Origin: Schmidtea polychroa
Taxonomy: Eukaryota
Direction of reading: 5' to 3'
DNA length: 64,000 nucleotides
Assembly (NCBI GenBank): GCA_044892525.1
Contig: CM097885.1
Span: forward strand, 226,486,001 to 226,550,000
Shown here: positions 1,621-52,900 of the stretch, in pieces
Layout: each line of letters starts with the position of its first letter
Numbering within the stretch: position 1 is the first letter of the stretch
Notes under the pieces: model-generated
Seen by the model: the letters and a program-made list of their open reading frames with translations, nothing else
What the model was told of the DNA's origin: nothing
The model's database searches: none
Position numbers and translations under genes: made by a program

Positions 1621-2275
1621 AATCTTTTCATTGTTAAACTTAAAAATTGATTAGGAGAGTTAATAACCTGAATACAAGAAATCAAGCTACTAAATAAACA
1701 GTCAAAACTCTTACAAAAGTTCACAAGAAAAATTTATTTATAAACAAAGATAAATTTGCACTGAAATTACTTATCCACTCATTTAAATTTCTATTTTATA
1801 AAAAAATCTTAACGGCACACTGATTGGACAACACTGAGCTAAAGGATGATTTATAGAGTTTTAAATTTATTGTCAATATTCAATAAATATGTTGAGATAT
1901 AAAGATTTTCGCTGTGTTAATTTAATCTTTTTCATATTTGCGCCACTATGTTATTTTTCCAAGTGAATTACATTTAAAGTATTTTTTCGCTTTATCTTAA
2001 ATAATTTAAAGATAATTTAAAAAAATTTCAGGTATCTTATTCATTTTATTTCTGTTTTAATAACTTAAATCATACTTAATCTTTAAGAATTTATTTTAAA
2101 ATTAAGATGCTGAAATTTATTTTAAAATATTAAAGAATTTTAATTCCATTAAAAATATAATAATTATCACATTATAATTAAGTTTGTAATTTTATTTTGA
2201 TTTCATTTGATGTATAAAAGATATCTTTTTTTGAATTATAAATATTAGCCTTCATTAAAACCATAATATCAAATC

Positions 2276-5200
2276 ATGGAAGATTATTTGGAAGATGAGG
2301 ATGTAACTCCTGAAGTTAGCAATTTATTTACAATTTTTTAGTAACTCTTGTAGTATTCACCGCTCAATCAATATTTGTCAAGTTTAAATTTGAATACTAA
2401 TGAATGTAATAACTTCAAGAAATCTAATCAAACTAAGAAAATTTCGTTTTCTCTGGTAGTTTTCTATTTAATTTCTGAATGTATATAAATTTATCTAGAA
2501 TAAAAGCCATTTTGATGACATAATATTTTCATTTTTCCATTCGATTAAGCGAAAAATTGTATTATTAATTTTCTTGTAAATTAAAAATATTAATAATTTT
2601 TAGTATGAATGTCATGTGGTTTTCATTTTAACTATCGCTTTAAAAACAAATATTTTAAATGAATTTGATGAGAAATATTTGTATTATTTAATCGAATCAA
2701 GATTAATTCATTGGAAATATGTTAAAAGTAATAAGTAAGTTATTTGATAATATGGTTATTTAATTTAATTTATTTAACCATTATTTTATACTAAATATTT
2801 TAACTAAAATTTCTTATAATTTATTCAATATATAATAATTGGGAAATATTTAGGAAAACACAAATGGTATCAAATAGAGCAGGGATGGCGAACCTTTTTT
2901 TGACTGCGTGCCAATACAAATTATTTTTATTAAATGAAAATACATGCTTTTAAAAATTATATATAGATTCATTTCTATAATATGCTGACATGTTTTTTAA
3001 TGGGATTTTTGTTGCTGAATATTTCTCGATAATGCATCAATATCCGGATCATAGTTTGACAATTTTAATGAAATACAAGCCTCCCCACATTCATCGGTAA
3101 GTCTGTTTCGTACATCAGATTTTATATTATTCATAATCGAAAATAGACTTTCACAGCTATACGTTGATGAAAATATTGTTAGAATAGCTAAAGGCAATTT
3201 CTTCATCGCATTAAATGTTTCTGGGAGCGAACACCATGTCTTCAACAACATATTATTCATGTTTTCGTATTCTTCTTCATTTAATCTTTTTTTTTCATTA
3301 TTTTCTATTTCTTGCCTTAACTCTATAAATTTCAGCTTCCAAATAGAACTTGATTGAAACTCTGCCAACTGCATTTCTAAATTCTCCAACTGTAACCAGT
3401 CTAATTGATCAATTTTAGCAGTTTCCATATCAAACTTGTCTGGATATTTAATAAAGTTAATTAATGGTTGAAATTTTTTGAAATCTTGAAATCTATTAGC
3501 AAAATTGTCTTGTATGTCACTTATAACTTGGCTATAAAAATTTATATTAATTTCATGGACTCCATGAATACAAAATTTTTGAAGCTGATCTTTCAACAAA
3601 GGAAAATACTTAAAATTATTGTTGTCAATATCGCGTTTAAATATTACTAATTTGGACTCAAAACCTTCAATAATATCGAACATTACATCAATTGATTTTC
3701 CGGGACCTTGCAATTTAATATTTAATTCATTTAAATGGTTGGAAATATCCGTTAAAAACATTAATTTGGTGATCCAGTTATTATCAAAAAGTTCAGGAAA
3801 TTCGGTTTTTTTATCATTAAGAAATATGATAATTTCATCAAAACATTCTACAAAACGTTGTAACACAAATCCTCTACTAAGCCAGCGTACGTGATTATAC
3901 ATTAACAATCCATGATAATTTGAACCTACCTCTTGTAGAAGCAACTGAAATTGCCGCTTATTCAAAGCTCGAGCTGCTATAAAATTTATTATTTTGGAAA
4001 CAATACTTAAAATATCATCAAATGCTGCCAATCCAGAACTTCTTGATGAATTATACAATGAAAATTAATAATTGGATGCCCAACGTGTTCTTGAAAAAGA
4101 GATACAAAACCAGCTTGCCGTCCTATCATTGAGGGAGCTCCATCAGTTGTAATTGGCACTATTGTTGATGTATCTATCTCAGCTATTTGAAACGTTTTTA
4201 TAACTGCATCACTAATATCTTTCCCAGTTGTTTTTGCTGATAAGGAAACTAGTGAAAGCAATTCCTCAACTATTTTTTCTCCTTTAGCATAACGAGCAAT
4301 TATGGACAAGCGAGCTGAAGATGTTACGTCGGTACTTTCATCAAGACATATAGAAAATAGCTTTGCTGAACGTATATCATTTATTTTTTTAATATTAATA
4401 TTTTTATGCATTTTTAATATCCTGTCTTCAACAGTATTTCGACTTATACTTAATTCTTCAATGCGCTTAAGTATCTGCTCTTTATTTTGAAAATCTTCAA
4501 ATAAATGTGGTGCACATTTAATGAAAGCTTCTTTAATATAATCTCCATCGCTAAATGGTTTGCTATGAATAGCAATAGTCTTGGAAACCTCAAAACTAGC
4601 AGCAACTAAATAATTTGTATGTTTCAAAAATGTAGTGAATGAGTTTGATTGGAAATTTTTATTTTTAACTTCACGTGCAATATATTCTTTTTGTTCTGAA
4701 CCACTTTTAGATAAAAGAAATGAATGAGTAGTTTCATAATGACGTTTTACTGAGGATGTTCTGCACACTACTGTATTTCCACACAACGCACACAGGGCAT
4801 TGTTATTGCATTTCATCATTCCATATTTATCAGTCCACCAATCTTGAAATGGTCTGTTAGAGCTGGCCTCTGTTTTCCTTTTCTTATTTTCTGACATTCT
4901 AAAGTTGAAACATATTATTTATTTATCATTAAAATTGTCTTCTAAAAATATAAATAGATTTTTTTTATTAGCAAAAAATAATACTAAAATAAGAAAACAC
5001 AATTTTCAATCGCACTTACAAAGTTTTTAACTGAACTGAATTAGAATTAGTGAATTTCAATTTTGGCGAGAATGCAAATATTAAAACAATTTTCAATCGT
5101 ACTTACAAAGTTTTTAACTGAACTGCATTAGAATTAGTGAATTTCAATTTTGGCGAGAATGCAAATATTCATATATATTTCATATATATTTGAAAATCCA

Positions 5201-8200
5201 AAGCATACTATATTCATTTTAACATTTTTTTTATATTTAAAATTACATGTTCATACTTGTACATACCTATACCTACATACGCAAATAATATAATTATATT
5301 TTAACGTTATGAATAAAGGCGCCAGAAATCTGGAAGTTCGTTTTTAAATAACAAAATTTATGCATTAAATTTGAATTGAGTTCACAATTTTTTCAATATC
5401 AAAAATGCATTTGGATTAGTCAGTACATTACATATGTATGAAAATGAAAAATATTATACGTGCCAGCAAAAATTTATCTGCGTGCCACTTTGGGCACGCG
5501 TGCCATAGGTTCGCCATCCCTGAAATAGAGTATTATATATTTCGAATGTAATTGTATAATTTAGATTTGGTATTTTATATTACATATTTCCTTTATTGAA
5601 TAGCTAACATAGTTTAAACCCTCCCACCCCATCTGTAACCACCACACCCATCTGTAACCCTCCCACACCATCTGTAACCCTCCCACCCCATCTGTAACCC
5701 CCACTCCACCTGTAACCCTCCCACCCCATCTGTAACCCTCCTACCTCATCTGTAACCCTCCCACCCCATCTGTAACCTTCCTACCCCATCTGTAACCCTC
5801 CCACCCCATCTGTAACCCTCCCACCCCATCTGTAACCCCCACCCCATCTGTAACCCTCATACCCCATCTGTAACCCTCCTACCCCATCTGTAACCCTCCT
5901 ACCCCATTTGTAACCCTCCTACCCCATCTGTAACCCTCCTACCCCACCTGTAACCCTCCTACCCCATCTGTAACCCTCCTACCCCATCTGTAACCCTCCC
6001 ACCCCATCTGTAACCCTCCCACCCCATCTGTAACCCTCCCACCCCATTTGTAACCCTCCCACTCCATCTGTAACCCTCCCACCCCATTTGTAACCCTCCC
6101 ACTCCATCTGTAACCCTCCCACCCCATTTGTAACCCTCCCACTCCATCTGTAACCCTCCTACCCCATCTGTAACCCTCCCACCCCATCTGTAACCCCCAC
6201 CCCATCTGTAACCCTCCCACCCCATCTGTAACCCCCACCCCATCTGTAACCCTCCTACCCCATCTGTAACCCTCCTACCCCATCTGTAACCCTCCTACCC
6301 CATCTGTAACCCTCCTACCCCATCTGTAACCCTCCTACCCCATCTGTAACCCTCCCATCCCATTTGTAACCCTCCTACCCCATATGTAACCCCCACCCCA
6401 TCTGTAACAGAAAAATGCTGAGGTGGGAGAAACGAAATATTTGGTTTGGTAACAGTAATGGAACAGACTTAAAATTTTTTAATTATCGATAAAGCCTATA
6501 ATTATCATTTTTAATACTACATCCGTTCCATAATACTTGTCACATTTGATCAAACTTTTATAGCTATAGCTTCAATTGTGTTAGGCCGATTTTCAAAGGT
6601 AATAGCTTGTTGAAAAGGGTTACTCGAGGCTTTCTAACAAGCATGGGCACTTAAAAATAGTTGATCAATACTTGAATAAAAAATTGCGAGTCAGAAATAA
6701 GTTCTTTATTAATTTTATAGTAGTAACATTTATTTCAGTTATTCAATATTTAAAAAAATTTTTATATTCTCCACGGCTTCGGCATTATATTTTAAATTTA
6801 TGAGGAGTCGACTTTCTCTTCGAAGTTTTTCTTTATTTATATGAGTAATCTTATAAAAGTTGTTTCCGTTTGATTTCATGATATTTTCCATACATTTTGT
6901 AGTGTTAAGAATACACTATCAAGCGTGTCTCGATCCAATTGTTGGAAAACTGTTTCTACAGCACTAATTAAATCATCAATATTTTTAGTGACCATATGAT
7001 GTTGCAAGGCTTGTATTGCATTAAAAACTCAAGATCCAAAACATTTAGGTTTGGTCTATTCGGAGGTTGAGGTTTTAATTGCAGACTCCAACGTTCTTTT
7101 ACAAGTTCTTCTTGTAAACAGAGTCATTATTTGTTAAATGAGGCTTGGCATTGTCTTGCTGTATATGTAAACAGTACGTGATTTTTCACTTTTTGGAAAT
7201 TTTTGGCGTATAGCTGGTAAAACATTTTTAATCATCATATTTCGAATTTCCTCTTTGCAGATCTGTTCCATAACTTTCGTTACAGGAGTTCCCTTTAGAC
7301 AATTTTTAGAGTTCCCTTTGGCATTTTCTTTGAAAGTGAATGGCCAGATTCCGATTTTTCAATCGAAATATTCGTTTTTAGATGAATCCCATCTTGGCCT
7401 TGTCACCGCTGCCATAAACATTACTTTAGTGATTTTACTTTTACATTGTCTGTGAGGTACTAACTCATCTAAAGAAACATAAAATGATTTTGATGTTTTT
7501 GTGATATAAAACCATTTTTCATCTATATGAACAACATCCATCATTTCAGAAAAAAACCCATTAGGTTGAACATGTGTTATAAACAAAACTGAGCTCTTTC
7601 GATTTTGTTAAAGTCAGTTTAATAGAAGATGAAACACGCTTAAACACATTCCCTTTCTTTAAAATTCTACGCAAAGTCGTAATTTGATAAGCTTCTTAGT
7701 GTTCTCCTTTGATTTAAAGGAATATCTTTAATTTTTTCTAATTGTTGAGATAAGTTTTTCTTTTTGGTCCACAACGTCCACGCTTTCTGGATTCCACATT
7801 GAAAACTTCATTTCCGTTTTCTTTAGATTGCTGTGCTCGCTTCCACAAACGAGATATTGTTCTAGGATGCACCTTAAAGTTTGCTGCTGCTTCATTTTTA
7901 GCTCCATGATTGAGTTTGCTATCTTTGTAACACATTAATAAAAATTGAAGAATACTCTAACTTTGATTTTGATTGAGTTCCTTGTTTGTTCGATTATCAT
8001 CCATTTTTAGTAAAAATGGGTTTAAAAACTCTTAAAAAATACGAGTAACACAAAAGGGAGCTGATCTTAGCAGTAAACACGAATCTATTGTAAAAAACTT
8101 GACATTTGACAGATCACACTCAGTGTTCCTTCTGAACATGCGCGTTTTTGCGCGCACAAATTTTAAACAGGGCACATTCACACTGTAAGACGAAATGTGA

Positions 8201-13210: not shown

Positions 13211-14700
13211 ACACTGTCTTACTACAAATTTTCAGAAAAAAAGCTACCTAGGGCTTATTTTCGGGTCATATTTTCAAAACAAATTTATTACGTTTAAAAA
13301 CTAGACATTTATTCAAATATAATCATGTCATCCACCTCATTTCCATCACCATCATTACTGTCAGTCGGGGTTACAATATTGCCCATCCGTGATTCAATTT
13401 CATCCAAGATCATCGGTCAAAATCTCGAATGCCTGGCAATATAGATATCTTCAAACGAGCCATTTTTATCCAAGTATCCTGCTCTTAGTGCGTTACCAAT
13501 GGACGTATCCGTGATTGCATTCCATGCTTTCGCGACCCAAGATACAACCTCTTGTATTTTTGGCTTTACCAAATTCCCACGTTGATTTCGCTCCATTCTT
13601 TTCTCAATATACTCATTTATTTCTGCTCTGAGGTAATCTTTGAATTGTTTATTGATCGCAATGTCGAGTGTTTGAAGATATCCAGTCATTCCGACAGTTA
13701 TCATGATCTGATCAATTCTTCTCTCGATTAGGAAGTTTTTAATACCTTGTGCACGGTGCGTGCTAGCCGAATCCCAAATGAGCATGCCTCTTTTCCCGCA
13801 CCTTAAGACAACAGGTAGCATCAAATCCGTCCACCTTTTTATGACAGCTTGTGTGCACCACGCCTTTTCAGATTCAAGCACATAAATTCCGGAAATGCGT
13901 GACAGCTTATCGTTCTTGCCTTTCGTTATGATGAGAGGAGGGATTTTACTTCCATTCAGTCGAATTCCCAAAATACAAGTCACGCGCATGCTTTCATAGC
14001 CAGTCGATGGGATGTAGATCGACGAAGCACCTCTTTTGTCAATTGTTGTTTGTGATTCCAAACCCATAAATACGGCTGTTTCATTCATGGCTATCACATT
14101 TGAGTGCTCATATCCCGAAAAATCTATTTGGTCAACAAAATTTTTGTATGCGATCGCCCGATTAATAATTTGCTCCTCTTCCAATTTGAACAAAGTAGTG
14201 GATTTACGTAGAGAAAGTTCATATCGCCCAAGGAAACTGTCCAGCCAATGGTTTGACGCTTTGAACTCATCCGATGAAATATTAAATGGTGTTATCAGCG
14301 ACAACGCAAATTTTTGAATATCAATCCTTCTAACAACCAATCCAGCGGATCTTCTTGCAGCAATCCATTCAAATACAGCATCCTCTAAATCGGGAAACAA
14401 TGTTTGTCGACCCGATCCGAACTTACGTTTCTTTTCATTGCCTTCGGCTGCTCTTTGAACAAGATTCGCATATTCTGCTCGCCATTTTCTAACCATTCGG
14501 AGATCTAGTTTATTATCTCTGCAAAATACCGTAAGATTTAGGCCATTTGACTCTTCAATAATGGCTTTCTTATATTCTATTGAATAACTTTTTCGATTCG
14601 CGCCCATTCGTGGGTTAAAAGTCAAATTTATAAAATATTGATACTGATTAATAAATGCGTTGTAACAAACTAATTAGATTGTTGATCATATAAATGCAAT
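13211..14700 (-). mobile_element. pogo-superfamily (DD35D, Passer/Fot-like) transposon; ~396-aa ORF with first catalytic Asp changed to Asn
   Basis: ORF 13417-14625 (likely ATG 14607): HTH + CENP-B HTH (LEDAVFEWI...RR) + DDE_1; motifs IAMNETAV, WDSASTH, LQTLD with 35 residues between D2 and D3. The 3' end runs into N-gap 13082-13210. Confidence 0.9.
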
Positions 14701-16755: not shown

Positions 16756-19700
16756 TGCAGCCAACGTTGTATTAAGGTGTTACAACGTCGAACCTATTTA
16801 TTTACATTGATTTTAGCCGACATAGGCAAAAGACTATGCCGGCCACCACAGAGGGGAATTAATCCACGAACTCCGTGGCACAAAACCACGAAGTCAGTAG
16901 GTCCTCCGGTGATAATTACATTTGAAAGTTTTATGCATGCCAGGCCGTAGACCTGTTGGGTCATGAAGGGTTGTGGACCCAACCACGACATTGGTGAATA
17001 TAATTGGTTGTAGAACTGGCGGGACCGTGTGCATAGAAATGTCACTCCGATCCCGGTCAATCTTACGAATGGTATAAAAATAAGGAAAACCAAATGACTA
17101 TTGATTATAAATATTATACAAATTATAATCAATAACAATCATATAAAACAATTAAATCGTTCTTACTAAATAGATTCCGAATTTAAACAGTAAAAGCAAA
17201 GAAAAACCTTTTTTGACATAAAAGTGTTTTGTGACGGAAATGTCTCGGTATATGTACCCTATTTTTGGTGTGCAAGTATGTGAGCGTGCAGTGATGCAGT
17301 AAAACAAATTCGAATTATTTTAATTCTAGAACATTCGATTTTTAATTTTTATCAATTTTGATGGCAATTTTCGTGCAATAATTTTTGTTTTTATTTTCAA
17401 AATTTTAATTTTTTATTAAATTTGCCTCCATGATGGATATGGCCATTTCCAGAACATTCCATGTTAAATTTAATCAATTTCTTATTTTTAATTGGCTTTT
17501 TGTGAATTCTTTCAAAATTTTTGTATTTTAAACTAAAAAACTTTATTTTTTGAAAATCTTATTGGGCCGTTTGGCGGCCATGTTAGATTTCGCCATTCTT
17601 ATGGATTGTTCTGGGTTTTTAATCAAAATTTTTATGAAAATTTTTAATTTCCATTATAATTTTTACTAATCGCCCCTTTTTCAAATTTGCTTTTGTCATT
17701 GTTATCACTTTCAAAATACATTATTTAGTAACAAGACTTTTTTTGAATTTGTAAATCTTTATTTTTTATAACATATTTAAACAAAGTTTAAATAATTAGA
17801 TTATTAAAAATACCTATAGTATTTATAATAATTATTTAATTGATTTGGCTACATAACTATCAGCCAAGATCATGGAGTGATCTATTAGATTCTTGGAGAT
17901 GGGTTGCTCTGAATTTGTCTACCGATACTCGTAAAGTCCTCGTTGGTAATTGAATTTCAAATGTTTTAAAATCTGAACTTTGGCTAATTACCCTATATGG
18001 TCCGTCACATACAGGCTTGAGGGCGGTTCTTGATTCGGCTTTGAGCCACACGTGAGTAGATTCCTTCAGCTCGCTCGGTAGGAATGGTTTCCAATTTTGA
18101 TTTCTTTTCCTTCTGATTATGATATCGCCAGGTAGCCGTCAATCAGTTGGCTTGGTGATAAATTTGTTTCTTCTGAGATGAAATTGCGAAGTCCAAGTAG
18201 AATTGACGGAAGTTCATTTGTCCAACTTCTGTAGGCACCATCTGAATGTGCCATTATTGCTGATTTAAGAGTTCTATGGAACCTTTCAACTTTGCCATTA
18301 CATTGTGGATGATATGGTGTGGTGTGTCTGTGATCAGCATTGAATTTTTGACACATATCTCTGAATGTAGCCGAGATAAATTGCTTGCCATTGTTTGTGA
18401 TGATGATTTCTGGAACTCCATAGCGGCATATCCACTCGGTCTCCAGGGTTCTCTTTATTATGTTGCTTGTTATTTCAGAGATCGGGATGGCCTCCGGCCA
18501 AGAAGTATATCTGTCAATAATAGTAAGAATATATTTTTAGTTGTTTACCTATGTCTAAGTGAATAACTTTGTCCAAGTGAATAACTTTGAATTTTCCTAG
18601 ATTTGGGAGCTTCTTGAGTGCTGATTTAGTGTGCCTGGTTATTTTGTTTTTCTGACATTTCTCACAGTTTTGCACCATTTTCGTATTAGGCTAATCGTCG
18701 CATTTGCCTTCGGGTGGCATGTATTGTGGAGCCGCTTAAATTCAACGAACTCATTGCTCTCTGGCAGACTATTCGTTTTGATCCTGTTGACATGTTTACA
18801 AACATTCCATCTTCATTCTTTTGAATTTCGAATGTGGGAAAAGCTTCTAACATTTTGAATAATGATGGCTCTTTCTGTTGTTGGATGATATCAGTTTTTC
18901 TTATCTGTATTGAAAGAATATGTGTTTCTTTATTGGCGTTGTCACTGGTGCCCATTTGCCTGGAAAGAAAATCTGCAACCAAATTATCTTTGCCCTTATA
19001 TGGTTGATCTTTATATCGAATTCACTTATGAATTGGATCCATCGCCATTGCCAATTTGATGGCTCTTTCATTGTGTTTAGGTAGATCGGTGGTTTGTGAT
19101 CGATAAGGAATTCAAAACTGTTGCCATCCAGGTGATGCTTGAAATTTTTGATGGTCAGATAAACAGCTGGCAGTTCTCTGTCAAATGTTGAGTACCCGCG
19201 TTCCGTACTATTTAGTTTTCTTGATATGAAGCTGATGGGTGTGAGTTTGTCATCACTATTTCTTACGCCAATGCCTATCTCTGATGCGTCCGTACATAGA
19301 ATGAAAGTTCGCTTTGAATTTGGGGGTGTCAACTCGACAATTTCTTGTAATTTTTTTTTGCCGCCTCAAAGTATGTTGTTCCCTCCATAAGAACTTCCGT
19401 TTGTCTTTGATACTAACTGAAACTAAATCATGTAGTGGTGCAATTATTTCTACCAGGTTTGGAGTTAGCCAGTGATAAAATGATATTGCTCCTATGAATC
19501 ATCGAAGAGATTTTGGATGGTTTGGGCCTAGACATGATGAAATTGCTTGAATTTTGTCTGGTTGTGGTGACTATTCCTGAACCTGAAATGATAAATCCAA
19601 GAAATTTTACTTCTGTTTGAGTCGTGCCGCACTTATTTTCATTGATGGACAAATTTGCGTCTTGCAAGACTTTCCGAATGACTGATAAGTGACCATGATG

Positions 19701-21430
19701 TTCTTCCTTAGACTTTGAGAAGATGATTATATCATCTATGTACGCTCTGGCAAATTCTCTGTACGGGCGTAGAAGTTTGAAAAGTTGAATAGTCTACGAC
19801 GCATTTTTTAATCCAAATGGCATTTTTAAATATTCATATAATCCAAATGGCGTGATTATTCCCGTTTTTGGTATATCAGCTTTTGAGATGGGGATTTGAT
19901 GGTATGCCTTCTCTAAGTCGATGGTTGAAAAAATTTGGTTCCCTACCAGTTGATCGAGCATATCAGTTATGCTCAGTAATGGGTATCTGTCTAACTTTGT
20001 TGCTGTATTCAAAAGTCAGTAGTCTCCACAGGTTCGAATCGATCCGTCTTTCTTTCTAACGATTACTAAAAGAGATGCCCGGTTGCTTTTACTTTCTCGC
20101 AAAAATGCCTTTTGCGATTAACTCATTAAATTCTTTTCCCACCATTTCTAAATACTTCCTGCTTAGGCGTCTAGCTGATTGTGCAATTGGTGGGCATACT
20201 GTCTCTATCTCCAATGCCTGCTCAAGAAGAACTGAGTTGATTTTTTCAGGAGCAGTTCTTTCTTTGGATTCTGTCGTATTTTCAGAAATGTAGATCTTAG
20301 CATTTCTACAGTCAATTACAAACTTATGGCTTGCTAGAAAATCTGCTCCTCGAATCGGGTGGTTTACATCTGACACCACGAAGCTCCATCTAAAGTTCTG
20401 CTCTATGTTTGAAATCCTAAAATTTAGCGTCTTCGAACCATAAGTTTTGATGTTGCAGTTATTGGATGAAACAAGTTTAATAGGCACGTCTCTAGAATCA
20501 GGAGTAAATGCATTCGCTGGGATGACGCTGACATCCACTCCAGAATCCACGAGGAAATTGTATGTTCTATTGCTCTGAAAAATTGGCACTGTGAATATGG
20601 TGGGGATTTTTGTCGACTCCTGAGTATTGTCCCGGATCTCTGTCGTCAAAGAGATCCTTAGTCTTTTCACGCATATGATGACTTAGTCCAATGACATGGC
20701 TGTTCGCGTTCTCGGGCATCCTTTCCAAATCTTCTGTGGAAATAGCATATAGGATTCATTGTTGACAGCTTGTTGTATTGACTGGATTTGTTATTTAATT
20801 TTATAGCATCGATTTGATTTTGGAGTTTTTCTATTACCTGTTGATACTGGATTTCGGCTTGTTGTCGATTTTCCACCAGAAATATAACATGATTTTTTGA
20901 AGCCCATATGTAAGTTTGCGATGTTTGCCAGCTCATCAATATCATCTTTTCTTTGACACTAATAAGTGTTGTATGTGAACTGGCATGCAATTTATAAATT
21001 GAAATCTCAGGATCTGGCTCGTTTGTGGGTTTCCATTCGGTTCCATTAGTTTGTAACTGCGCTTGAGTTCCCTGAGCAATTGACTTGATTTTCGGTCACC
21101 AAGTTCTTGTTTCTGCAGCAATATTTTGGCAGCCTCTGTTGCCGATCCTTTTGATTCCCTGATTATTGCGTCTTTTACGAATATGGCAGTTTGATTTGGT
21201 GGTCCAATAGATCCGAGTTTTCTTCAAGGATTCTTAGCGGTAGACTGGTGAGGAGATGAAAATATTTTCTTTTTTCATTTTTTATTGATGTCAGCTCGAG
21301 TCCAGCATCAACTTTTTGGAAGAACGCTACTACGTTGTCGAAGAAAATCGGTATCTTCATATGGATGTGACTACTTTCATGAGCCACACTTCTGACACCA
21401 ATGTTGTCATAATTAGAATACATTATTTAG
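16756..21430 (-). mobile_element. Ty3/gypsy LTR retrotransposon, fragmented gag-pro-RT-RNaseH-integrase
   Basis: Gag (KIPIFF...KYFHLLTSLP...LGDRKSSQLLRELK), protease LVDSGVDVSVIP, RT (YPLLSI...IDLEKAYHQIP...MPFGLKNA), RNase H (LCTDASEIGIG...ELPAVY), integrase (TTPYHPQCNGKVERFHRTLK) and GPY motif in the correct order; many frameshifts. Putative 3' LTR ~16756-17853 (TGCAGCCAA...TTGGCTACA, tentative); 5' end lost in gap 21488-21688. Confidence 0.95.
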
Positions 21431-31400: not shown

Positions 31401-34400
31401 CCGAATATAATTTATGAAATTATTATTAATGAATTTTATTATTAAACTATAGTTGAAATAGTTGAAGCCATTTTTATTCAATTTGATTTTTGAAATATTA
31501 CATTTACATAAATAATTTCATTTTATCTATCAAAATTAAAAGTAATTGTAAATTTTTAGTTTAATATAATGAATTACGAACAGAAGCACAGATCTGGTAA
31601 ATTCTGTGATTGTATAATTTTGAAAAAAAATGTAAGACAATAAGATTAATTAGTTATGTTGGAATAAATCCTTAATCATAAATTTTTTCTCTATCTTTTA
31701 AAATTCGGTAAATAAATCTTAGGAGCAAATTTGCTTTACCGATCAGGTTAAAATTATATACAAGCATAAGGAAATGCATTAAGAAAAGAGCTACTAAAAT
31801 TCTTTGGAAAATCAAAAATATATAAAAACATACTTTATTTGGAACATTTAATTTTGAATTTTGGGATATTATCACCGAAACGTAAATGACACTTTTATTG
31901 TCGATTCCATAGGAAAATAATTCTTGTCTATTTTTTAGAATGGTATCATTATATATCAAATTCATTAAATGAATTTCGATATTTATTTTTTTTGAAATTA
32001 CAGTTTTTAAATATTCCACGGTTTTCGATGAATAAATTGAGAGAGTAAATGATTTTATTGAATACTGAATTATTATTTCGATTTTATCCAGAATTTTCAA
32101 TTGCACAATTGATTTCATTGTGATTCCATACATTGCCAAGGTATTGTGTTTTTCTAATCGGTTGTTGTTATAATAGAGAGAGATTTCATTATAATTAAAG
32201 AGGCTAATCTTGGAAATTATTGTTATTAGTTTATCAATTGTGAAATATTTCCGAACAGAAATGAGTAACTGCTCTTCGTCAGATATTACGATATTTAGCG
32301 AAAAGGATAAATGAGAAACGGAAGTGGTTTCAAATGGTATTCGATAGTCATATTTGACACTGAAAAGATTTTTTAAAAAAGACGGAATTTTGATATTGTG
32401 ATCTTTTGTTTTATATTTGATTTTCTTCGATATTTTGCTGTCAACTAGAACTGTAAATAAATTAGTTGATAAACGTAATAGTTGAAATCTATTTTTAAAT
32501 AAGAAATCATATAAAACATAACAAGAATGATGACAAACAAATGTCTGTCGTGATGTTTGTCACGACTGAAATAAAGTTGACCAGTATTATTTTATTATGT
32601 ATCTTATGCAAAATTACTTGTAATTTTGCTTTCGAAAAAACATACAATTAGCATTGCGCACACATTTTTTAGTAATATTAAAAATGCATTTGACACCTGT
32701 CAAACAATTTCTATACTTATAACTTTGATCAATATGTAGAGGGTTAATTCTGCACACAATAATAAGAATAATCACCTCCTAAATCTTGAAATATATTTCG
32801 TCTTCTCTTAAATTCCTCTCTTAACCTTCACTGTTACATGCCATTGTTTATTTCCTATACCCTACTCTCAGTTTTACAATGCAAGTTATTCAAATACGAA
32901 TTACACCTTTACTTGACCATCAATCAGTTCAACTACTTTAATTATTCCAAACTCTTTAATATGACAAATTGACTTTTCACTTTTATAAATATATTTTGGG
33001 GAAATACAATTTGCCATGCAATAATAATACATTTGAAATCGAAATATCACATATTTTTTCTATTGTCCTACTTCGGCGACTGTAAGATTAGATATATAAA
33101 TCACTTTTTATACAAAGTACAGTTGTTAATATAAACAATTTATTGACTGATTTATATCAATAAAATAAATGGATGAAGATTGATAAACCCTCGACCAGGT
33201 GCAATGTGAGTAAGAACAGGATCGGGCGCAATGTGCGTAATAGGCCACTTTTACAAAAACAAACATTTTAATCAAATAAAAACATGTTTATTGTTTCATT
33301 TGCTCTATATCCTTATTCAAATTGAAAATTCTCTTTGAGTTTACCATTTTTATTGCTGTATCTGTACAAAGAAATAATAAATAAGGTATGGCATTATTAT
33401 GCTTGAATTAATTAGAAAAATTACTTACTAATGTAAATATAGACATAATGGTTGTACTACCTAAGAGACACAAAGTGCTGCGACTCCAACACATGAGGTT
33501 CAAATGCGTACTACACATTATAGGTCGCTGCAGAATGTTAAAACAACAAGCTACTGAGGTGGCCGGGTGGTAACGATAACGGTAAATTTTGGCTGTGCCT
33601 GATGAATCAGTTGAGCACGACTGAGTGTTAAAAAAGTAATTTCTTGCCTATTTAAAATTTTCTGTTGATTCACCTCCATCGATTCCTGAAAGTCATAATA
33701 GAAAAAGAACACTCATTACAATTGACGATAAATTACATGCAGTTAACAAGCTAGAAAATAAGGAGTCGATAAACATTTTGTGCCAAAAGTAGTGTAGGAA
33801 GATCGATAATATACTATTGGCGGAAGATTAGGGGTCACATGAAACATTTTCATAAAATGACAGAATATGAACCGGCGCTAGATAAAAGATTCACAACAAA
33901 AGAAAAATATTCTGAATTAGATGATATTCTATGTATTGAAACTTTAATATTTTTGAAAACTGGTGTACATATTTTTTAATGTATAAATAATAAATAATAA
34001 GTAATAATAAAAAAACCTTCCAATATATAAATGACACAAAATGGTTGAGTTATTAAGAAAGTAATTAGATTATTTTTTTGTCAAGAGACAAAACCTTAAA
34101 AACGGAGAATTTAGAAATGAATTTTGACTTTCCAATCATCATTACTAATAAAAAATTATATTTTCCAAATCCAATCTAGAATTGATATCATTAATCAAAT
34201 TTATTAGCATTCAATATTTTGAGTAAGTTTGTAGGGTATCAAATGTTTTTGAACCTTGGCTTCTCTATATTTGATGCGAATAACTCGGTAAGTCTTGTAA
34301 AATCTCCATTTATAGACAACTATCTTACTCTACGAGGCAAGAGTAACTGATTTGTTAATTCATTTTTTATTCATAAACTTGTGTAAATTATCGCAAATAA

Positions 34401-37632: not shown

Positions 37633-38611
37633 TTATTGTCTGTCATCATTTGTCAGCCTGGTGGACATACTATTCTCAAGCTCGCTGATGCGTTTGGTGA
37701 GGCCTGTAATAGCGCAAAGTAAGGCTTCTTCGGTCGAAGGTTTCAAAGAAGAAGATAAAATTTTTGGATTAGTGCTACTACTTAATTGCACAGAGCAAGT
37801 TGGTTGCGGACCAAGTGGCACGACTTCGTTAATCTTGTCGGCCATCTTTGTTAGCTCTACCACATCTGAAGAAAGCGTTAAATTTGTTATGCGTGTGGCG
37901 GTAAAGCAGTCAGAAAAAATTGCTTCAAGAGTTTTTGATCCGCAGCAGCCTCAGGATGTATTTGAGTTAGTTCTGCCATAGCGTGTTGCAAGAACTGTGA
38001 TGGTTTTCTGCTACCCAAAGTTTGCGTCTTAAAGTATTTAGTAAAGACGACAGCTGTAGGCTCTTTAAAAATATCGAGGATTGCCGTACGCAATTCTTCA
38101 TAAGGATTTTTGACGCTAGTAGGCGAAGTACGAAGGATTACGGAGGAAAGTTTACTTAATATCGTCGGGGGAAGCAACGGCAAAATACGACAGTATTTGT
38201 CTCGTGAACTGGTTACCTCGATTCCCTCGAGTGCTAGTTCGGTAGCAATCAGCCAAGTAAGTGGAGATTTATTCTCATCCAAAAAATATTGACATAAATA
38301 CGTTGATCGCTGATTGTTGGACTTACGTTTATGTTTTGTCTGTTTGTGATTGCTGTCTGAGTCATTCTCCGAATCGGAGGAACCGCCAGAAATTGGCAAC
38401 AAACAATGAATGACGCTGTATGGTGTCACTCCGTAGTCGCCCAAGGTAGGACTGTCAGAAAGAATGGTGCCGTTGTACGATAAGAGAAAACGGCATTTGT
38501 GATTGAAAAAATGCTGTATGTTTGAGAAAGACATTTAATTGTCGTGTCCGTGTTTACTGAAACAGATTGTGTTTTATTCGTTCCAGGATTTTTTATTAAT
38601 ATTTGGAACTT
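37633..38611 (-). mobile_element. Ty3/gypsy gag relic with an N-terminal ubiquitin-like domain (Ubl-Gag fusion); no pol seen
   Basis: 38608-38382 encodes a 76-residue Ubl ending LLPISGG (one frameshift in a T6 run), read through in frame into Gag (TWLIATE...KYCRILPLLP...PYEELRTAIL...LGSRKPSQFL...FFLTALP; second frameshift ~37887; then KMADKINEV). Confidence 0.85.
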
Positions 38612-38749
38612 ATTAGGCCCCGGTGCGGCACTACCCTCTCGTGTGGGCTAATGTTTAATCAATTTTAATTTATTTAAATAATTTATTATAATTTTATATA
38701 TAATATCTATAATAGTATAATTCAATAATAGTATAATAGTATAATTTAC

Positions 38750-39630
38750 AGATAATTGATCTAAGGTACCTGACGGTGCTGACACGGGCATTGCTTGATT
38801 AGTCTCATTGTGAAAATAGGATGATGTTGACTGATGAGGTTCATTCGTCCATACATTAGATTCGACAGTTGATCTGTTTCGTTGACTAGCTGATGACGGA
38901 TTTCCTAATTTTTCACTGCAGTCTGCCCCAATCTTACTGTCAATCACCCACGGAGTACTCTTGTCAACTGTGTGACTACCCCAGCCATCAATTCGATTAA
39001 TAAGGTTCAGAAATTGGTCATCTACTTCCTGTTTAACACCATCGTAATTTTTTACAGATGTTTGAAGGCCTTTTCCAGCAGCTTGAGCCCAAGTTTGACG
39101 TTCGCTGTTTTTCTCATTACTTCCTCTTGAATCTGGATTATTTAGGTCACTATCATCTAAAGAACCAATATCATTAACAGCTGAACTATTGAAAGCACTG
39201 AATAAAGGAAATTCGGATTTAATATCCGATGATTCAGATTGTAATTGAATACTTTTACTGCTAAATTTGGAAGATGATTTATTTATCGGGTTTGATGGTG
39301 CAGCTTGATTAGCTGCCCAAAATGAAATACTTCGAGTGCTAAATCTATCATTCGATAAGTCGCTGGACTGAGAATTATTCCAACAATTATCCAGTTTATT
39401 TGATGAATCATTATTCACAATGAAATCTGATGAATTATTTCTAGATAATCCCCAAGGAACTGTTTCGTTATTTGCTGGCCATTGTGATGAAAAACCAAAA
39501 GTAAAATTGTTGCCCATTTTATTTGTGTTATCTGATTCAGAGTTCCAATTAGGAGTTCGTTCTACACTGCTATCTGTAGACGATGATATGTTAGAAATTT
39601 TGGTACTAAAATTAGATGAGCTGCTTAGAA
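38750..39630 (-). CDS. TNRC6: GW182/TNRC6 (Gawky) N-terminal Argonaute-binding region, exon block
   Basis: S/N-rich ORF with spaced Trp motifs plus TWAQAAGKGL and LINRIDGWGSHTVDKSTPWVID (GW182 motif-I-like GWG..V.Q.T.W); frame open upstream of ATG 39517 to ~39630; phase-0 donor GTAAAT at 38749. Downstream UBA/RRM exons not found in the window. Confidence 0.75.
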
Positions 39631-39999
39631 TGATTTCGTAGGAATTTTCTTACCAGTAAATATCCCACTTCTGACACCTAGTGTGGTGGTGTTATATTTC
39701 ATCATTTTCCAATATGGTGCAAAAACAGTTTCTTCGTCAGCTGAAAATTCCAAAACTCCATTTTCGATAGTTTTTGTACAATTTTTATAAAATCCGGTTG
39801 AGTAGCACGTATAAACCTTGTCAAAATTCATAGGCATACTATAAAATAGATCCATTTTGAAGGTATTTTTGAATAATAAAATACTAATTGATTCACAATA
39901 TTACAAAACTAATAATAACCAGTGAGAAAATAAGATATATTTTAAATTTCCAATGACAAATAACGTAATAATAAAATTTATATGGATTTTGTTAAGGCC

Positions 40000-41443
40000 G
40001 TGTAATGGCTCACTACATAAGCCTTTCCATCATTTGTTACTAAATATTTCATTTCATCATTGTCGCTTAAAAAAACCTTATCATAAATCTTTTGAAACTA
40101 TTGCCTTTTGATAACCATCTAATTTCAGTATGAGGCAATAATTTTACATACTCTTCGTTGTTACCCTCACAAAAAAATATAAACATACGTTCACACTTTG
40201 CGCTAGATTTGACTGCATTAATACATCTTATTACCTTATTCATAGCGTCACTAAGTACAGGCGACAAGTTTTTTGACACTAAATTCCCCTTATGAATTGC
40301 ACAATACATTGTTATAATCTGCGGATTTTCATCTTTTATCAATTTTAAACGACCATTTTTTCCCGATCATATTATGGGCACCATCAGCTGCACTAGAAGT
40401 GATATTCTCCATTGGTATATTGTTGTCATTAAAATAGGATTTAACAGAAGAGAAAATATCTCTAGATGTTGTAGTTTCTAAATCCTTACAAAACAACATT
40501 TCCTCGGCAAAATCATCATTATCAATATACCTGTCATACGCCATCAGTACAATTTCTCCTTCTTGTATAGTTTATTCATTCAACTGCAACGAGAATTTTG
40601 TTATTTTAAGCTTGTCTATGAGCTCATTTTCAACATTTTCCGCCATATCATCAATCCTTCTACGAACGCTACTATTACTCAATAGCATTCTTTCTACTTC
40701 TTTAATGTTTTTCTGCAACACTATCCTATGAAATGCAGTAATTGCCGGTTTAATTAATGTTTCTCCTATTGTATGACATTTACCAGATTTAGATATAAGG
40801 AAAGATATTTCATAGCTTACTCCATTATAAAGACCAGCATTACAACTCAGATGATTAAAAAATGTTTTTAAAATTTTTATTTTTAAAAACACTTCCTTCA
40901 TATCTTTGAAGACGGATAGTGGAAAAATAGTTCTGTTTTGTCTTTAAATCCGATTCTAGTCTATCCTTTTTATTGATTCATTTGTCAAACACTGTTGACA
41001 TAATAAACAAAACGGAAGAGTTTCATCTTGCACTGCTGATATAAATCCATACTTTAAGTAGTCATCAATATATCTACGAGGATTTCTTTTTGAACTAGGG
41101 GTAAAAATTTTATATTTTTTTAGCAAAAAAAGAATACAACTTAAGCTAAAATTGTTGGAAAAATTTTGATAATTAACCAAATTACGTTTATTTATTTATT
41201 ACAAACAAACAAACACGAATCAGTATTAGCTGTACTTTATAGAAGAATTTATATATAATTTATATAAGAATTTAAAGAGTAAATATCAGTATTTTGCCAA
41301 AAAAATCTTTGTTTACTTACTTATAGTTGCCATCTAAAAGTAGGGAAATGAGAAAATTTTAAAATCCATTAATTTCGAAATTGCCCCAACGAAAAGTTGA
41401 ATTGGCCCAACTGGGGCCCTAGGGCCCTAGATGAGAAGCACTG
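40000..41443 (-). mobile_element. Degenerate hAT (ZBED8/SCAND3-like) 5' half
   Basis: Fragments RRYIDDYLKYGF, HTIGETLIKPA, FSLQLNE, ADGAHNM, CAIHKGNL, EIRWLSKG; hAT end GAGAAGCACTG at 41433-41443. Confidence 0.88.
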
Positions 41444-46930: not shown

Positions 46931-49200
46931 TTATTTAAACAATTTTAATAATATTAATTTTTTTTTACGGGCTCCTTGGTTCTCTAACCAAGACATCAAT
47001 TCTTTTGATGTGAACTCTGGTGCGTAATCTGTTACGACACATTCAGGAATACTGAAACGCGTAAACACTGTTCTCAGACATTTGATAATGCCGGATTTGG
47101 TCCTCTCTTTCGTTCTAAAGGCTTCGATCCAACCCGAACCCGAGTCAACTATAATTAGAATGTTGCCAACGTTGGGGATAATATCGTATTTGGCCTTGTT
47201 TCCTGGATGGTTGATGTCGTGTATCTTCGAGATGCACGTATTCCTGAATTCTTTCGGTAGGAGTATTCTTGGTGTGTTTTCGTTACTGATGTTGTACCAG
47301 CAATCATTGATTTGTTCGAGTTTTAGACTATGTTTTGTTGATACCTCTTTCAGTGTTTCTGCTTGTTTGTTTTTGATTGTTTCGACTTCGAACATTTCGC
47401 TGAATTCGAGTGCGTTTATGTCTGTTTCGGTTCTTGACAAGGTGTCTGCTGCTATATTTGCTGCTCCCGCGATATAATTGATTGTACAGTTGAATTGGGA
47501 TATGTAATTTAATTGCCTTATTTGCCTTGGTGATGGATTTTTCATTTCTATTGCGTTTTTAAGAGGTTTGTAGTCAGTGTAGATCTTGAAGTTCCTTGCT
47601 ATTAGAAGTGTTGAAAATGTTTTATGGCTTCGTGAATTGCGAGCAGTTCTCGATCGAATGTAGAGTATCTTGTCTGGTGGGTTTTAATTTCTTGGAGAAG
47701 AAACCAATAGGTTGTTTACCAAATTTATTGTCTTCGTAAAGAGTTGCTCCCATTGCGAATCTGGAACAATCTGTTGCTAGGTTCTAATCTCGTTTTGGAT
47801 CCGGGTATCCCAGTAGTGTGGCTTGAGATAAGCTTGTTTTTGCTTTCTCGGAGTTTTTGATTGCTCCCTCAGTCCAGTTTATTTTGATGTTTCGTCTTGA
47901 ATTGATAAGGTCGTTTAGTTTGTTGCATGGGAGTGTCGCTATTATGTTGGAGGAGCATAGGGATTTTATTGACTTGACTTCAGATAGCGTTAATGTTAGT
48001 TTCGCGAATTCTAACCATTTCTGCGCTGTTCCGTTATCGTCTGTGAAGTAGTTGGGGATATTTGTTCTGAGGTTAATGACTGAATTTATGGTGTGTTTGG
48101 GTTATAGTAGTCGTTCATATTTTCCATCTTGTGCGTGTTTTCGTCATTGTTGGGTGTTTGTGACATGTTTGTTAGGTTTGTTTGGTTTGATGCCATTATT
48201 TGTTTTGTTGATGTTTTTTTATTGTTTGTAGTGCTAAATAAATTTAGCTTATTTAAAAGGTTATGGCTTACTGTGTTCAGCCAAAAGAGACACTATTCTT
48301 TATACCTCTATATTAGGTATTCTGAAAGCGATAGTGGTTGAAAAAAATCGTAGAGCGCGGTTGTCTTGTTGCGTTTGCTTCTGACATCAGTTATGTTGTT
48401 ATTGGTTATTTATTAGTTCTTTATAATTATTTTGTGACTTGATGTATAAGAAAAATCTGTAGAGCCCGACAGTGTCTCCAGTAAAAATATGTGGCGAGAC
48501 AGTCGAAATGCCTGTATGTAGTGCGTGCTACAACCCAAATAATAATAAAATCAAAATACAAAATTAACCAAATATAACAAACAAATTATACTTTCAACTT
48601 TTATTTTAAAAAATTAAGACCTTAATTAGCCTTTTCGATGATGTCTTGACTGCGGTGAATTGCCTTTAACAGGTCCTTTAAACAGCAGATTGGGTTTTAA
48701 AATTTTTAAAAAATGGCTCGATGATTCGCGCAAAAACCTTCTCGGTTCCTTTTGTGATCGTGGAAGTTTTGGAATTGCATTCAAAGCATTGTGGAACTTG
48801 ATCGAAGTTTATTCTTCTTTTTTTATTCTTCCGATTACGCAATACATATTCGTTAATTCTACGTATTTTGTCAATTGCACGGAGATTTTGTCTTGGCTAA
48901 TCTGTCAAGATTTTGCTTGATTGTATAATTTTTTCGGGTTGAGATTATTTTATTGTTCATTGTATGATGATTGGTTAATCCTGATGATAATTATCGCGTC
49001 TGTGTGCGCGTTGGTTTTGAAAGTGTACATATCTATGTGTGCGCACACAGACGCAAACAATGTATTTTTTTAATTTTGTAAGTTGGATTTTATTAATATT
49101 TGAATGGAATGAATTGTTTTTGAAGTTTTTAGATTTTTTCGAGTTGTTTAAAACGTGGAGTTTTTTGTTGTGATTTAAAAAATTGTTTTTCAATAAATTT
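46931..49200 (-). mobile_element. Ty3/gypsy relic(s): gag-like, RT/RNase H and integrase fragments
   Basis: LATDCSRFAMGATL, YSTFDRELLAI, RQLNYISQFNCTINYIAGAANIAADTLSR, zinc-binding HD..HPG, then IVDSGSGWIEA...TDYAPEFTS integrase core. Confidence 0.85.
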
Positions 49201-49222
49201 TGATTTCATGCCTTGAGTTAAA

Positions 49223-49530
49223 ATGTCAGCTAATGCAATTGGAAGTGACTTAGAAACAACTTACTCATGTGTTGGAATATTTCCATATGGAAAAGTCAAG
49301 ATCATTGCCAATGATCAAGGAAACCGTACAACTCCAAGTTATGTTGCGTTTACAGGCACAGAACGCTTAATCGGCGATGCGGCTAGGAATCAAGGTGTAA
49401 TGAATTCTAATAATATTGTATTTGATGCTAAAAGATTAATTGGTAGAAAGTTTGATGAACTCTCAGCGCAAAGTGACATGAAACACTGGTCATTTGATGT
49501 TATAACCGAAGCTGGAAGACCAAAAATCGA
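49223..49530 (+). pseudogene. HSP70: HSP70/HSC70 5' fragment pseudogene
   Basis: [14 protein letters not shown]...[27 protein letters not shown]...[12 protein letters not shown]; homology stops after ~100 aa; phosphate-1 motif altered (GIDLG to GSDLE). Confidence 0.92.
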
Positions 49531-49987
49531 ATTTCTAATTCACGATGGATCTGAATCTACGCTGACAATTTACCAATGGTTCAATAAATATGTTTATATT
49601 TAAAGAAGTTAACTTCTATTAAAATAAATTTCCAGTTCCTAATCAACAAAATTACATTATTGTTGTTAACTAAAATAAAATAATTATTTTAGAGTATTGT
49701 TAAAATAAAAGCCTACTGGAATTTGAGTTTTTGTTTTTACTTCTGGTTCAAATTTTATTTAAATATTGTAGTACCTATTTTTTTTGGTGGAAATATACAT
49801 ACTTTTCAAAGTAGGGAATTGTGGTTCTTTTATTGATGAAAATTTTACTTTGTTTAAAAATAACAGTAATAAAGTAATATCCGTTAATAGTTGGTTTGAA
49901 ATACGGTTAATAATTTGCTGATAATTAATTTAAATTTGATTAATTTTATATTAAGCATTTACATGCGAATAAACTGTTACGTGTTAA

Positions 49988-52900
49988 CAGCGTTGCCAAC
50001 CGTACTATAATTATAGTATTTGTACCATAATTTGTATCTTGTGTACTATGTACTATTGGAAGTTCTAATTGTACTATAATTTTAACAAATTTATCTAAAA
50101 CATTTTTTCACTACGATATTTTAATTTTCTGAAAACAATTAATCAGAATTTTTCTAAAAAAAACTTTAATCAATATTAATTTTTTACAAAACGTATTTCG
50201 GTATGAATAATGAATATGAGCAGATGGTAAAAATTGACATCTGATTTGTTTTGTTGGATTGAAATTCAAAGTTCATGTGTTTTTCTAAACATAGTACGTT
50301 TTTTAAATATTAAGTTTTTAAAATGTTTTCTAACTTATTTTTTTAATATTTTAGAAACCGTAACGTAACTATGGATATTAGTAGCAATAGTGACGACAGC
50401 AGCAGCAACGCATGTATTGCTTTAAATATAAAGCAAAATCATAAAAAGATTTTAAATAAGAAGAGAGTGCAAAAATATAGAAAAGCTTGGGAAAAAGATG
50501 AACGCTTCAAAGGATGGCTAACCCATGATGATGAATCAACAACCAGAGGTAGATGTAGAATATGTAATATTGGTTTTTTGGCTGAGCTACATGTAATTAA
50601 AAGTCATAGTGAAGGAAAAAAACATAAATATTGCATGAGAGGTGAGCGTCAAACTAATTATACAAAAATAACTAACTTTATAAACAAAGATTGTATAGAG
50701 CTAAAGTCACAAATTTCTTTAGCAGAAATAAAAGTTTGTGCATTTTTAGCAGAGCATAACATTGCTTTTAGTGCTGTAGATCATTTAACAAATCTATTAA
50801 AAAATATTTTTCCGGATTCCAAAATAGCGCAAGGTATTAAACTTGGTCGGACAAAAGCAACAGCCATTATACGGGAAGTAGTTCCACCTGCCCATAAACA
50901 GGAACTATCTAAAATATTAAAATCAACTAAATTCAGTATTTTAACTGATGAATCCCCAGATATTAGCTGTGAAAAAACTGCATGTTTAGTAGTAAGATAT
51001 TTTGATGCAAAACAAAATAAAATTCAAAGTAGTTTATGGGAGTTGGTCAAAATATATAAAGACGCTGAATCCGCAGCTACAGCAGAACATTTATTTAATA
51101 ATATTATGTCATCACTGCAAGAAAAAAATATACCAATATGCAATATAATAGGATTTGGTTCTGACGGATGTAACGTGATGATGGGTGAACACAATTCTGT
51201 TGCTTCTAGATTTATAGCTGCTTGTCCAGGTATTAAAATTATGAAATGTATTTGCCACTCAGCCCATATTTGTGCAAGTGCTGCATGTAAAATGCTACCA
51301 AGAAGATGTGAAGATTTAGGTCGTAATATTTATAATTTCTTTAACTGTAGTGCGAAAAGACAAAATGAGTTCAAAGAGTTTCAAGTATTTTTTAATTTGA
51401 ACATTCATAAAATGCTACGACCATCGCAAACTAGATGGTTATCATTAAAAGCATTAGTTGATAGAATTATTGAACAATGGGACGCACTACAATTATATTT
51501 TAATGGAATTTGGTTAGGAGATCGAGTAATAGCCACTGAGCAAATTTTTCGTGACTTAAATGATCCGTTCATGAAGCTATATTTTTATTTTTTAAGTTGG
51601 ATTTTGCCAAAATTTGTTAATTTTAATAAGTACTTTCAGACTGAGCAAGTGATATTAACAAACTTGTTCGAAAAACTTTCTGAAATGTACAGAGATATGC
51701 TGCTTTGCTTTATGCAACGCCAATATGTCATGATAACCCCACTAAATGACATAAATCCTTCAGATAGGTCGAAGTATATTAATATAAAAAATATTTATTT
51801 AGGTGTTGTCGTACTTCAAGAAATTCAAAAAAATAATGATATTAAAAACAATCATGAACTTTTGTCAGATTTTTTCGAGAGATGCGTGCGTTTTATGGAA
51901 GTTTCCTGTATTGAAATTAAAAAACGTTTTGATTTCAGTGACAACAATAATTTGAAACTATTGATAGCATTGAATCAAGAAAATGCTCTTTCTGATAAAT
52001 ATAGAGAAACTTTTCCAAGTATGATACCAATATTAATAGCTTTTGAACGAGTTTTGGACAATAACCTAACGAAAAAACAAGAAATTGATAATGAGTGGCG
52101 ATTACTACCTATTTCATTTCCATCTTTACCAGAAAATATTACAACAGAAAAGCAAATTGATAAATTTTGGGCGAAACTGATGACATATGAAGTTTTGAAT
52201 GAATTTCCATTCCAAAACCTATCCAGTTGTGTATTAAATATTTTATGTATTCCGCATGCGAATGCTGAATGTGAGCGAATTTTTAGTAAAGTTAATTTAA
52301 TAAAAACTAAAATACGAAATAAATTAAATGTCGAAACAGTTAACGCCACTTTATTAACATCTCAAAAAGTAAGCCAGGAAGGTGGATGCGTGACATTTAT
52401 GCCAACAAAAGAAATGATAAACCAAAATAATCAAAATATTTATAAATTTAAAAAAACAGATCAAGATTGTGATGTTGAATTTGACATTTAAGAGGTTGTT
52501 ATACCCTTTCCCAAAAAATGCTTTCCGAAAAATAACAATTTTTCTTTTTATTTATAATTCAGTATTTTAAAATATTTTAGCATAAACTTATCAGAAAAAA
52601 AGTAAATTTGATTTTTTTCTTATAATTTTGAATTATAGATTTTTGTATTAATTAAAAATGAATAATTTGATAAATCCTGCATCATCTGTTATGCTTTGAT
52701 GCTAAAATATTTTAAAATACTGAATTATAAATAAAAAGAAAAATTGTTATTTTTCGGAAAGCATTTTTTGGGAAAGGGTATGACTGACGCTTAAATCAAA
52801 ATAGAATTATGCTATATGTAACTATAAATATATAATAAGTATTATTACATATAAATTTATTACTTAATTATCATATGAATTTGTTTGCTATTGTTTTTAT

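Follow-up and report, generated by a model that had tools for sequence, protein, structure and literature searches.

A young, multicopy family of Ty3/gypsy LTR retrotransposons in the genome of Schmidtea polychroa carries a ubiquitin-like domain (Ubl) with a terminal Gly-Gly directly upstream of its Gag and in the same frame. In the young copies, this Ubl is positioned between Gag and a long, exchangeable extension composed of captured pieces of host mRNAs. By analogy with ubiquitin fusions, host deubiquitinases would cut after the Gly-Gly and release a normal Gag from any sequence captured upstream. This reading is rather probable because the captures are in frame, the extension evolves neutrally but remains open, and the same layout is found in a BEL/Pao element.

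The copy in the window

One copy is located in the window, which is the complete stretch of 64,000 nucleotides analyzed (positions 226,486,001 to 226,550,000 of contig CM097885.1, assembly GCA_044892525.1). Its minus strand between 38608 and 38382 encodes a Ubl ending with Gly-Gly, in frame with a DUF7041-type gypsy Gag (Table 1). The matches to PF00240 and DUF7041 bore out the preliminary description of this DNA, which had read a Ubl-GG running in frame into a typical Gag.

Table 1. Parts of the Ubl-Gag element in the window, listed in the direction of its transcription.
Feature	Position	Strand	Evidence or remark
5' LTR, short variant of the gypsy family	39681..40017	-	Family LTR start motif at 40017; 337 bp up to the primer site
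UFD1-like captured host piece inside the LTR	39690..39855	-	Pfam UFD1_N1, E 6e-5, below cut-off
Primer binding site	39662..39679	-	Identical motif after the LTR end in sister copies
Captured GW-rich host gene piece (GW182-like, tentative)	38836..39626	-	97% identical to the host gene in L159
Captured 89-bp WWE-domain host gene piece, native frame	38750..38838	-	92% identical to L167; WWE, E 9e-4, below cut-off
AT-rich stretch coding for a hydrophobic, membrane-anchor-like segment	38663..38749	-	19-residue hydropathy
18-codon leader, first codon Met in older copies	38609..38662	-	Stop at 38648-38650 in the window copy
Ubl ending with Gly-Gly	38382..38608	-	PF00240; beta-grasp model of a sister copy; frameshift near 38510 in the window copy
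Gypsy Gag core	37634..38381	-	DUF7041, E 9e-6; tblastn to a natural full copy, 84-91%

The window element is a dead copy: a stop codon interrupts its leader (38648-38650), the frame shifts twice, near 38510 and near 37890, and the sequence is cut off at 37634 ahead of the CHCC knuckles; zinc knuckles, pol, and 3' LTR are missing. The break near 38510 was bridged with an X in the translation. As to the earlier question of whether it is private, it is not a family trait: among 99 scored sequences, 97 had a spacing of 48 nt across this site, and a spacing of 47 nt was restricted to the window copy and one other. The UFD1-like piece is not in the frame of Gag in this dead copy. The GW-rich piece is in its native frame with two internal deletions and a weak RRM match to GW182 (E 1.1), and the parent gene of the WWE piece is presumably TRIP12-like. 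Hydropathy of the hydrophobic segment, calculated over 19 residues, was 2.2 to 2.9 in four young copies versus 0.6 in one older copy. We take the primer-site motif to resemble the end of a tRNA-Leu; elements of the CsRn1 clade are characterized by a tRNA-Trp primer site.

The same primer-site motif occurs in a decayed gypsy element at 17986-21423 of the minus strand, with a plain Gag immediately following the primer site (21175-21360). The Gag at 21175-21423 had been cited as a related Gag without the domain; the Ubl is indeed missing there, but this element belongs to another family (pol pieces 29-47% identical). The window also contains another decayed gypsy element (46931-48101, minus strand), long transposase-like frames at 2997-4918, 13417-14673, 40067-40943, and 50347-52491, assumed to be hAT-like and pogo-like, a presumably HSP70-like 5' fragment (49217-49603, plus strand), and an array of 20-bp tandem repeats (5602-6419).

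A young family with complete elements

A DNA search yielded 141 candidates, and among the 40 that were scored, the 39 besides the window copy were 91-92% identical. A protein search of the genome with the Ubl yielded 535 candidates, of which 150 were scored, with at least 119 matches. From these 119, 110 were fetched; the window's two pieces, three second fragments of split matches, and four neighboring or tandem copies were omitted. The Ubl tail was readable at 104 of the 110 places and ended with GG in 101 of these 104. A whole Ubl and at least 100 Gag codons shared one frame at 81 of 110 places. At 45 places, an uninterrupted frame began with an ATG in the LTR and covered all of Gag; pol was open at 46, and both were open at 34 of the 110. 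Intact Ubl-Gag copies with LTRs and pol, for which a genome search had been suggested, thus exist. Ubl, GG, and in-frame junction are present in most copies, and the proposal of a retrotransposon lineage carrying a Ubl holds; neither a family otherwise devoid of the Ubl nor intact copies devoid of GG or junction, the two contrary outcomes named beforehand, was encountered. Two copies without the Ubl body look defective: in L165, which has a DDX6-class helicase piece within the LTR, the last eight Ubl residues are left, and in L168, both the Ubl and the beginning of Gag are missing.

The family is in the range of 7 to 8 kb, its full elements measuring about 7.5 to 8 kb, with TG..CA LTRs. Matching 5-bp flanks, indicating target duplications, were found in 58 of the 59 copies with two LTRs (57 exact), and the LTR pairs of these 59 copies were 98.3-100% identical, 20 of them identical over the aligned part. 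The Ubl-Gag family is young and multicopy. A host-like frame with tandem Ubl domains, located within the window at 5 kb from the element, might suggest that a Gag fragment once landed beside a host Ubl pseudogene. Such a single event is refuted by the 119 matches across the genome and by full-length elements that have paired LTRs and target duplications; moreover, the neighboring Ubl is only 29% identical and does not end with GG.

The natural Gag of the family contains two CHCC motifs (CX2HX9CX3C), and pol overlaps gag in the −1 frame at an A-rich run. In a natural frame of 1129 amino acids, the Pfam positions gave the order PR-RT-RH-IN, with weak matches to the protease (E 0.02). One locus (L104) has gag and pol in a single frame of 1747 codons. 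At two other loci (L193, L194), a truncated family copy is inserted into other genes, which we take to be Polinton-like.

Two sequencing runs were identified as RNA by a GT-AG spliced joint in a host gene, not from the run records. Contigs from both runs covered gag and pol, and those from one run covered the Ubl as well; these contigs carry no start, strand, or level. No GT-AG joint over the element was found among the 15 of 31 RNA-contig joints listed.

Captured host pieces upstream of the Ubl

Older, more diverged copies possess a Met 18 codons before the Ubl, in one case with the primer site about 90 nt ahead of that Met. In 83 of 87 young copies, the old start codon is now a Leu or Ile codon, and in young full-length copies, the frame remains open for about 490 to 635 codons upstream of the Ubl, through the primer site and into the 5' LTR. 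The description of the Ubl as N-terminal therefore agrees with the older copies and not with the young ones. A processing signal, one of the roles proposed in the preliminary description, remains the preferred reading. What such a signal would serve had been overlooked: in young copies, the Ubl separates Gag from a long extension whose captured pieces of host mRNA can be swapped.

The 77 5' LTRs could be sorted into 14 groups that have the first 220 to 350 bp in common and differ beyond. These variable parts are pieces of host mRNAs, among them a MANSC/KIAA0319-like piece with a signal-peptide-like start, a glutaredoxin, and a DDX6-class helicase. Another piece was assumed to be ENGase-like; Pfam and PDB gave no support for this assignment. 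Introns of the parent genes are missing from the captured pieces: five exons that span 7.4 kb in a secretin-type receptor gene are joined, and three other pieces each lack a single intron, which shows that the captures derive from mRNA. An in-frame ATG was supplied by seven of nine distinct LTR pieces (p about 0.01, binomial at one third, with some ascertainment bias); the two exceptions were an open frame without an ATG and the dead copy of the window. Internal pieces with a located parent were in their native frame in four of four cases, and the GW-rich piece is present in nearly all young copies. At one locus (L111), a single frame opens with a glutaredoxin start and continues through secretin-type receptor helices, which stem from five spliced exons, and the GW-rich piece into the Ubl and the beginning of Gag. 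The extension contains a signal-peptide-like start and receptor membrane helices, which would fit poorly with a capsid protein that stays uncut.

Internal capture junctions exhibit short overlaps. Three independent captures (L055, L074, L165) have their junction with the final 45 bp of the LTR at one and the same nucleotide. Three LTR pieces end at or near host splice donors, two of them exactly, and no AG acceptor preceded the LTR capture junction in any examined variant. Splicing into the LTR is a possible source of such captures.

The released extension itself might be functional, with the host-like GW-rich, DDX6, UFD1-like, and WWE pieces acting as decoys or anti-silencing factors or with its RNA shielding the element against small-RNA silencing. 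The capture of a DDX6-class helicase domain and the near-ubiquity of the GW-rich piece in young copies would fit such a role. This is decidedly improbable, however, considering the neutral evolutionary rate of the extension and the fact that the pieces are partial and swapped among subfamilies, including pieces from unrelated genes such as the receptor, glutaredoxin, and MANSC.

Gag downstream of the Gly-Gly

The 340 residues that follow the GG match ordinary Gags of 243 to 346 amino acids over their full length. None of these 10 Gag homologs from elsewhere has a ubiquitin domain listed, and another gypsy family of the same genome has a plain Gag without a Ubl. In the young copies, no Met is present between the leader and Gag codon 134. 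Ubl-Gag relatives outside this genome were not found in word-based, weak searches that gave 27 candidates for the Ubl-only region and 3920 for longer proteins, none of them scored. Two DNA searches for intact, diverged sister families yielded only decayed relics.

Attachment or cleavage of the Ubl may mainly serve the folding, the N terminus, or the half-life of Gag, as a chaperone or N-end device, with tolerance of captures as a side effect. This would agree with the older copies, in which the Ubl is nearly N-terminal behind a Met as in ribosomal ubiquitin fusions, and with a Ser as the residue after the GG in both the gypsy and the BEL/Pao family. As the main explanation, it is improbable: it does not account for in-frame captures in both ubiquitin-bearing families, and plain Gags in the same genome manage without a Ubl. 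It is compatible with cleavage by deubiquitinases, for which it may have been the original benefit.

If host deubiquitinases do cut after the GG, the following sequence of events can be proposed. The ancestor would have been composed of a Met, 18 residues, the Ubl-GG, and Gag, akin to a ribosomal ubiquitin fusion. Co-packaged host mRNAs would have been copied into the element at reverse transcription. Translation would begin at the captured 5' start codon, so that only in-frame captures could spread, and cleavage after the GG would render these captures harmless to Gag. Since the extension would be discarded by cleavage, its sequence could drift while staying open. Gag-Pol, formed by a −1 frameshift, would be processed alike.

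Selection on the extension, the Ubl, and Gag

Selection was evaluated in 61 full copies, 67 minus 6 duplicates. The dN/dS values were calculated from variants common to at least three copies, and such shared changes do not represent independent events. Gag gave a dN/dS of 0.08 (4 amino-acid and 18 silent shared variants) and pol 0.07 (8 and 43), compared with 1.15 for the extension (42 and 13), which had no shared stop. The Ubl was at 0.76 with 8 amino-acid and 4 silent variants (Fisher test versus Gag, p 0.008-0.035); a first pass that retained two duplicate pairs gave 14 to 4 and a dN/dS of 1.34. Variants present in a single copy, used as a control, were near 1 in all regions. Within the Ubl, residues 1 to 49 vary like the extension, and residues 50 to 76 had 1 versus 2 changes, too few for testing. 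All four classes of primer-to-Ubl spacing with at least three copies are multiples of three, and an 8-bp frameshift in the extension is common to three copies. The extension stays open while its sequence drifts freely. Constraint on the Ubl is much weaker than on Gag, with no clear purifying selection. The conserved GG is uninformative alone because copies this young would keep it even without selection.

The weak amino-acid constraint argues against any strong function of the Ubl. It may be a relic in a drifting leader, with the extension being removed by the aspartic protease of the element or avoided through splicing or a start farther downstream. The dN/dS of the Ubl, indistinguishable from 1, and the extension-like variation of residues 1 to 49 agree with this explanation, as do the loss of ubiquitin recognition residues, the intact protease encoded by the element, and the in-frame Met codons within the extension. 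A relic is nevertheless rather unlikely. A ubiquitin-GG occurs independently at the same place in a BEL/Pao element, the lack of a Met up to Gag codon 134 in young copies argues against a downstream start, no GT-AG joint appeared among the RNA-contig joints listed, and compatibility with the fold was retained.

Identity and recognition residues of the Ubl

An unbroken natural sister copy of the Ubl matched PF00240 with 40.3 bits (cut-off 25.4). The window Ubl could be aligned without gaps to a near-ubiquitin unit of the same genome, with 19 of 73 readable positions identical. All 11 residues named earlier as shared with ubiquitin (G47, L50, D52, T55, L56, D58, Y59, S65, H68, and G75-G76) matched in the alignment when examined by eye. 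The accompanying statement of gapless colinearity is approximate: the HMMER best alignment of the natural copy to ubiquitin extends through the GG but needs one gap of one residue. The Ubl ends with the diglycine in frame with its Gag partner as in Ubl-GG fusions, and a decayed relative with a 39% identical Ubl retained the GG tail.

A model of the sister-copy Ubl from a 9-row alignment displayed a confident beta-grasp fold (pLDDT 86.6) with TM values of 0.83 to 0.87 to ubiquitin among the best 10 rows; this support is partly circular since the alignment included ubiquitin-like rows. A single-sequence model was poor, and a structure search with it found nothing.

The body of the Ubl is closer to ubiquitin (21-23 of 75 positions identical) than to the host FUBI (13 of 71). 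Host FUBI likewise has a Pro-Leu-x-Gly-Gly tail, and the similarity of the two is a short tail match only (E 0.013), which leaves an origin from FUBI unsupported. Five kilobases from the Ubl, the window contains a frame with two tandem Ubl domains and no GG (31672-32559, minus strand; PF00240, E 2e-15). An origin from this frame is likewise unsupported by its 29% identity to the element Ubl and its missing GG.

In the alignment to ubiquitin, the equivalents of I44 of the patch, K48, R42, R72, and R74 are lost, so that the family Ubl is devoid of these features of a conjugatable ubiquitin. This argues against conjugation and weakens the earlier suggestion of a ubiquitin decoy. It also raises doubt over which protease could cut: judging from these positions, general deubiquitinases might not recognize the family Ubl.

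A BEL/Pao element with the same layout

At one BEL/Pao locus (L187), a phosphatase piece in both LTRs is followed by two ubiquitin units, a GG, a DUF1759 Gag, and a protease. Positions 1 to 3858, read with L189, comprise a dual-specificity phosphatase piece and 846-bp LTRs that are 99.2% identical, with no RT within the stretch read. The second ubiquitin unit lacks the tail arginines. A frame scan at three other candidate BEL/Pao places in the genome revealed no ubiquitin unit. The gypsy Ubl is identical to the BEL/Pao units at only 21 to 23 of 75 positions, and the two acquisitions therefore look independent.

It is quite possible that the unrelated gypsy and BEL/Pao elements of this animal independently adopted a host-cut, ubiquitin-type linker before Gag. 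LTR and leader would then act as a cassette in which 5' ends of spliced host transcripts can be exchanged, and autonomous elements would sample and translate mosaics of host exons at no cost to the capsid. Gene capture usually cripples LTR elements, and a cleavable linker would explain why capture and translation of host exons by autonomous elements continued. Youth and coverage by RNA contigs make the native protein of the family open to examination. The family also disperses 5' pieces of host genes with its numerous LTRs, with possible consequences for small-RNA cross-talk and gene annotation.

Comparison with known systems

In the openly accessible literature, no published report was found of a Ubl-GG before a retrotransposon Gag or between captured host 5' ends and Gag; the family could already be catalogued in Repbase or GyDB. 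A ubiquitin/SUMO-like motif downstream of Gag in Burro (PMC6431247) and multi-gene capture in Bs1 (reviewed in PMC13317346) were known before.

The family resembles the CsRn1-like Ty3/gypsy elements CsRn1, PwRn1, and AgCR (PMC2582038) in the CHCC motif of Gag, present twice here, the order PR-RT-RH-IN, and the −1 overlap of gag and pol. It differs in the Ubl-GG and captured extension before Gag, an ORF1 that starts in the LTR, and a target duplication of 5 bp instead of 4 bp, and because of the latter it was filed as CsRn1-like and not as a member of the CsRn1 clade. The giant gypsy element Burro/GYPSM1 of planarians (PMC6431247) also contains a ubiquitin/SUMO-like motif (PF11976) in a gypsy polyprotein together with host-like domains. 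Its Gag, however, is N-terminal with the motif downstream, the element exceeds 30 kb and has an env-like region, and the accessible text describes no release of Gag at a GG.

Template switching lets LTR elements capture spliced mRNA (PMC5131818). Chimeras from LTR-mediated retroposition (PMC5131818) and maize Bs1 (PMC13317346) share with the present family spliced host pieces, several genes per chimera, sense orientation, and recopying. They are described as non-autonomous, whereas both frames remain open at 34 of 110 places here, and in the present family the LTR itself houses the pieces, which provide the start codon and are linked to Gag by the Ubl.

FUBI-eS30 and ubiquitin-ribosomal fusions (PMC8354635) likewise place a Ubl-GG in frame before a partner protein, and cleavage of FUBI requires its diglycine (PMC8354635); the body of the element Ubl is nearer to ubiquitin. 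Ubiquitin inserts of pestiviruses are cut by host hydrolases, and those before NS3 consist of a captured ubiquitin-type unit that is preceded by host sequence, abuts a viral protein, and acts as a processing signal (PMC8310069). These are sporadic recombinants of RNA viruses with near-true ubiquitin, in contrast to the fixed and diverged (about 30%) Ubl of a retrotransposon with its putative cleavage. If the proposed cleavage is true, the family would be a retrotransposon counterpart of the pestivirus inserts and would provide a testable link between deubiquitinases and transposon activity.
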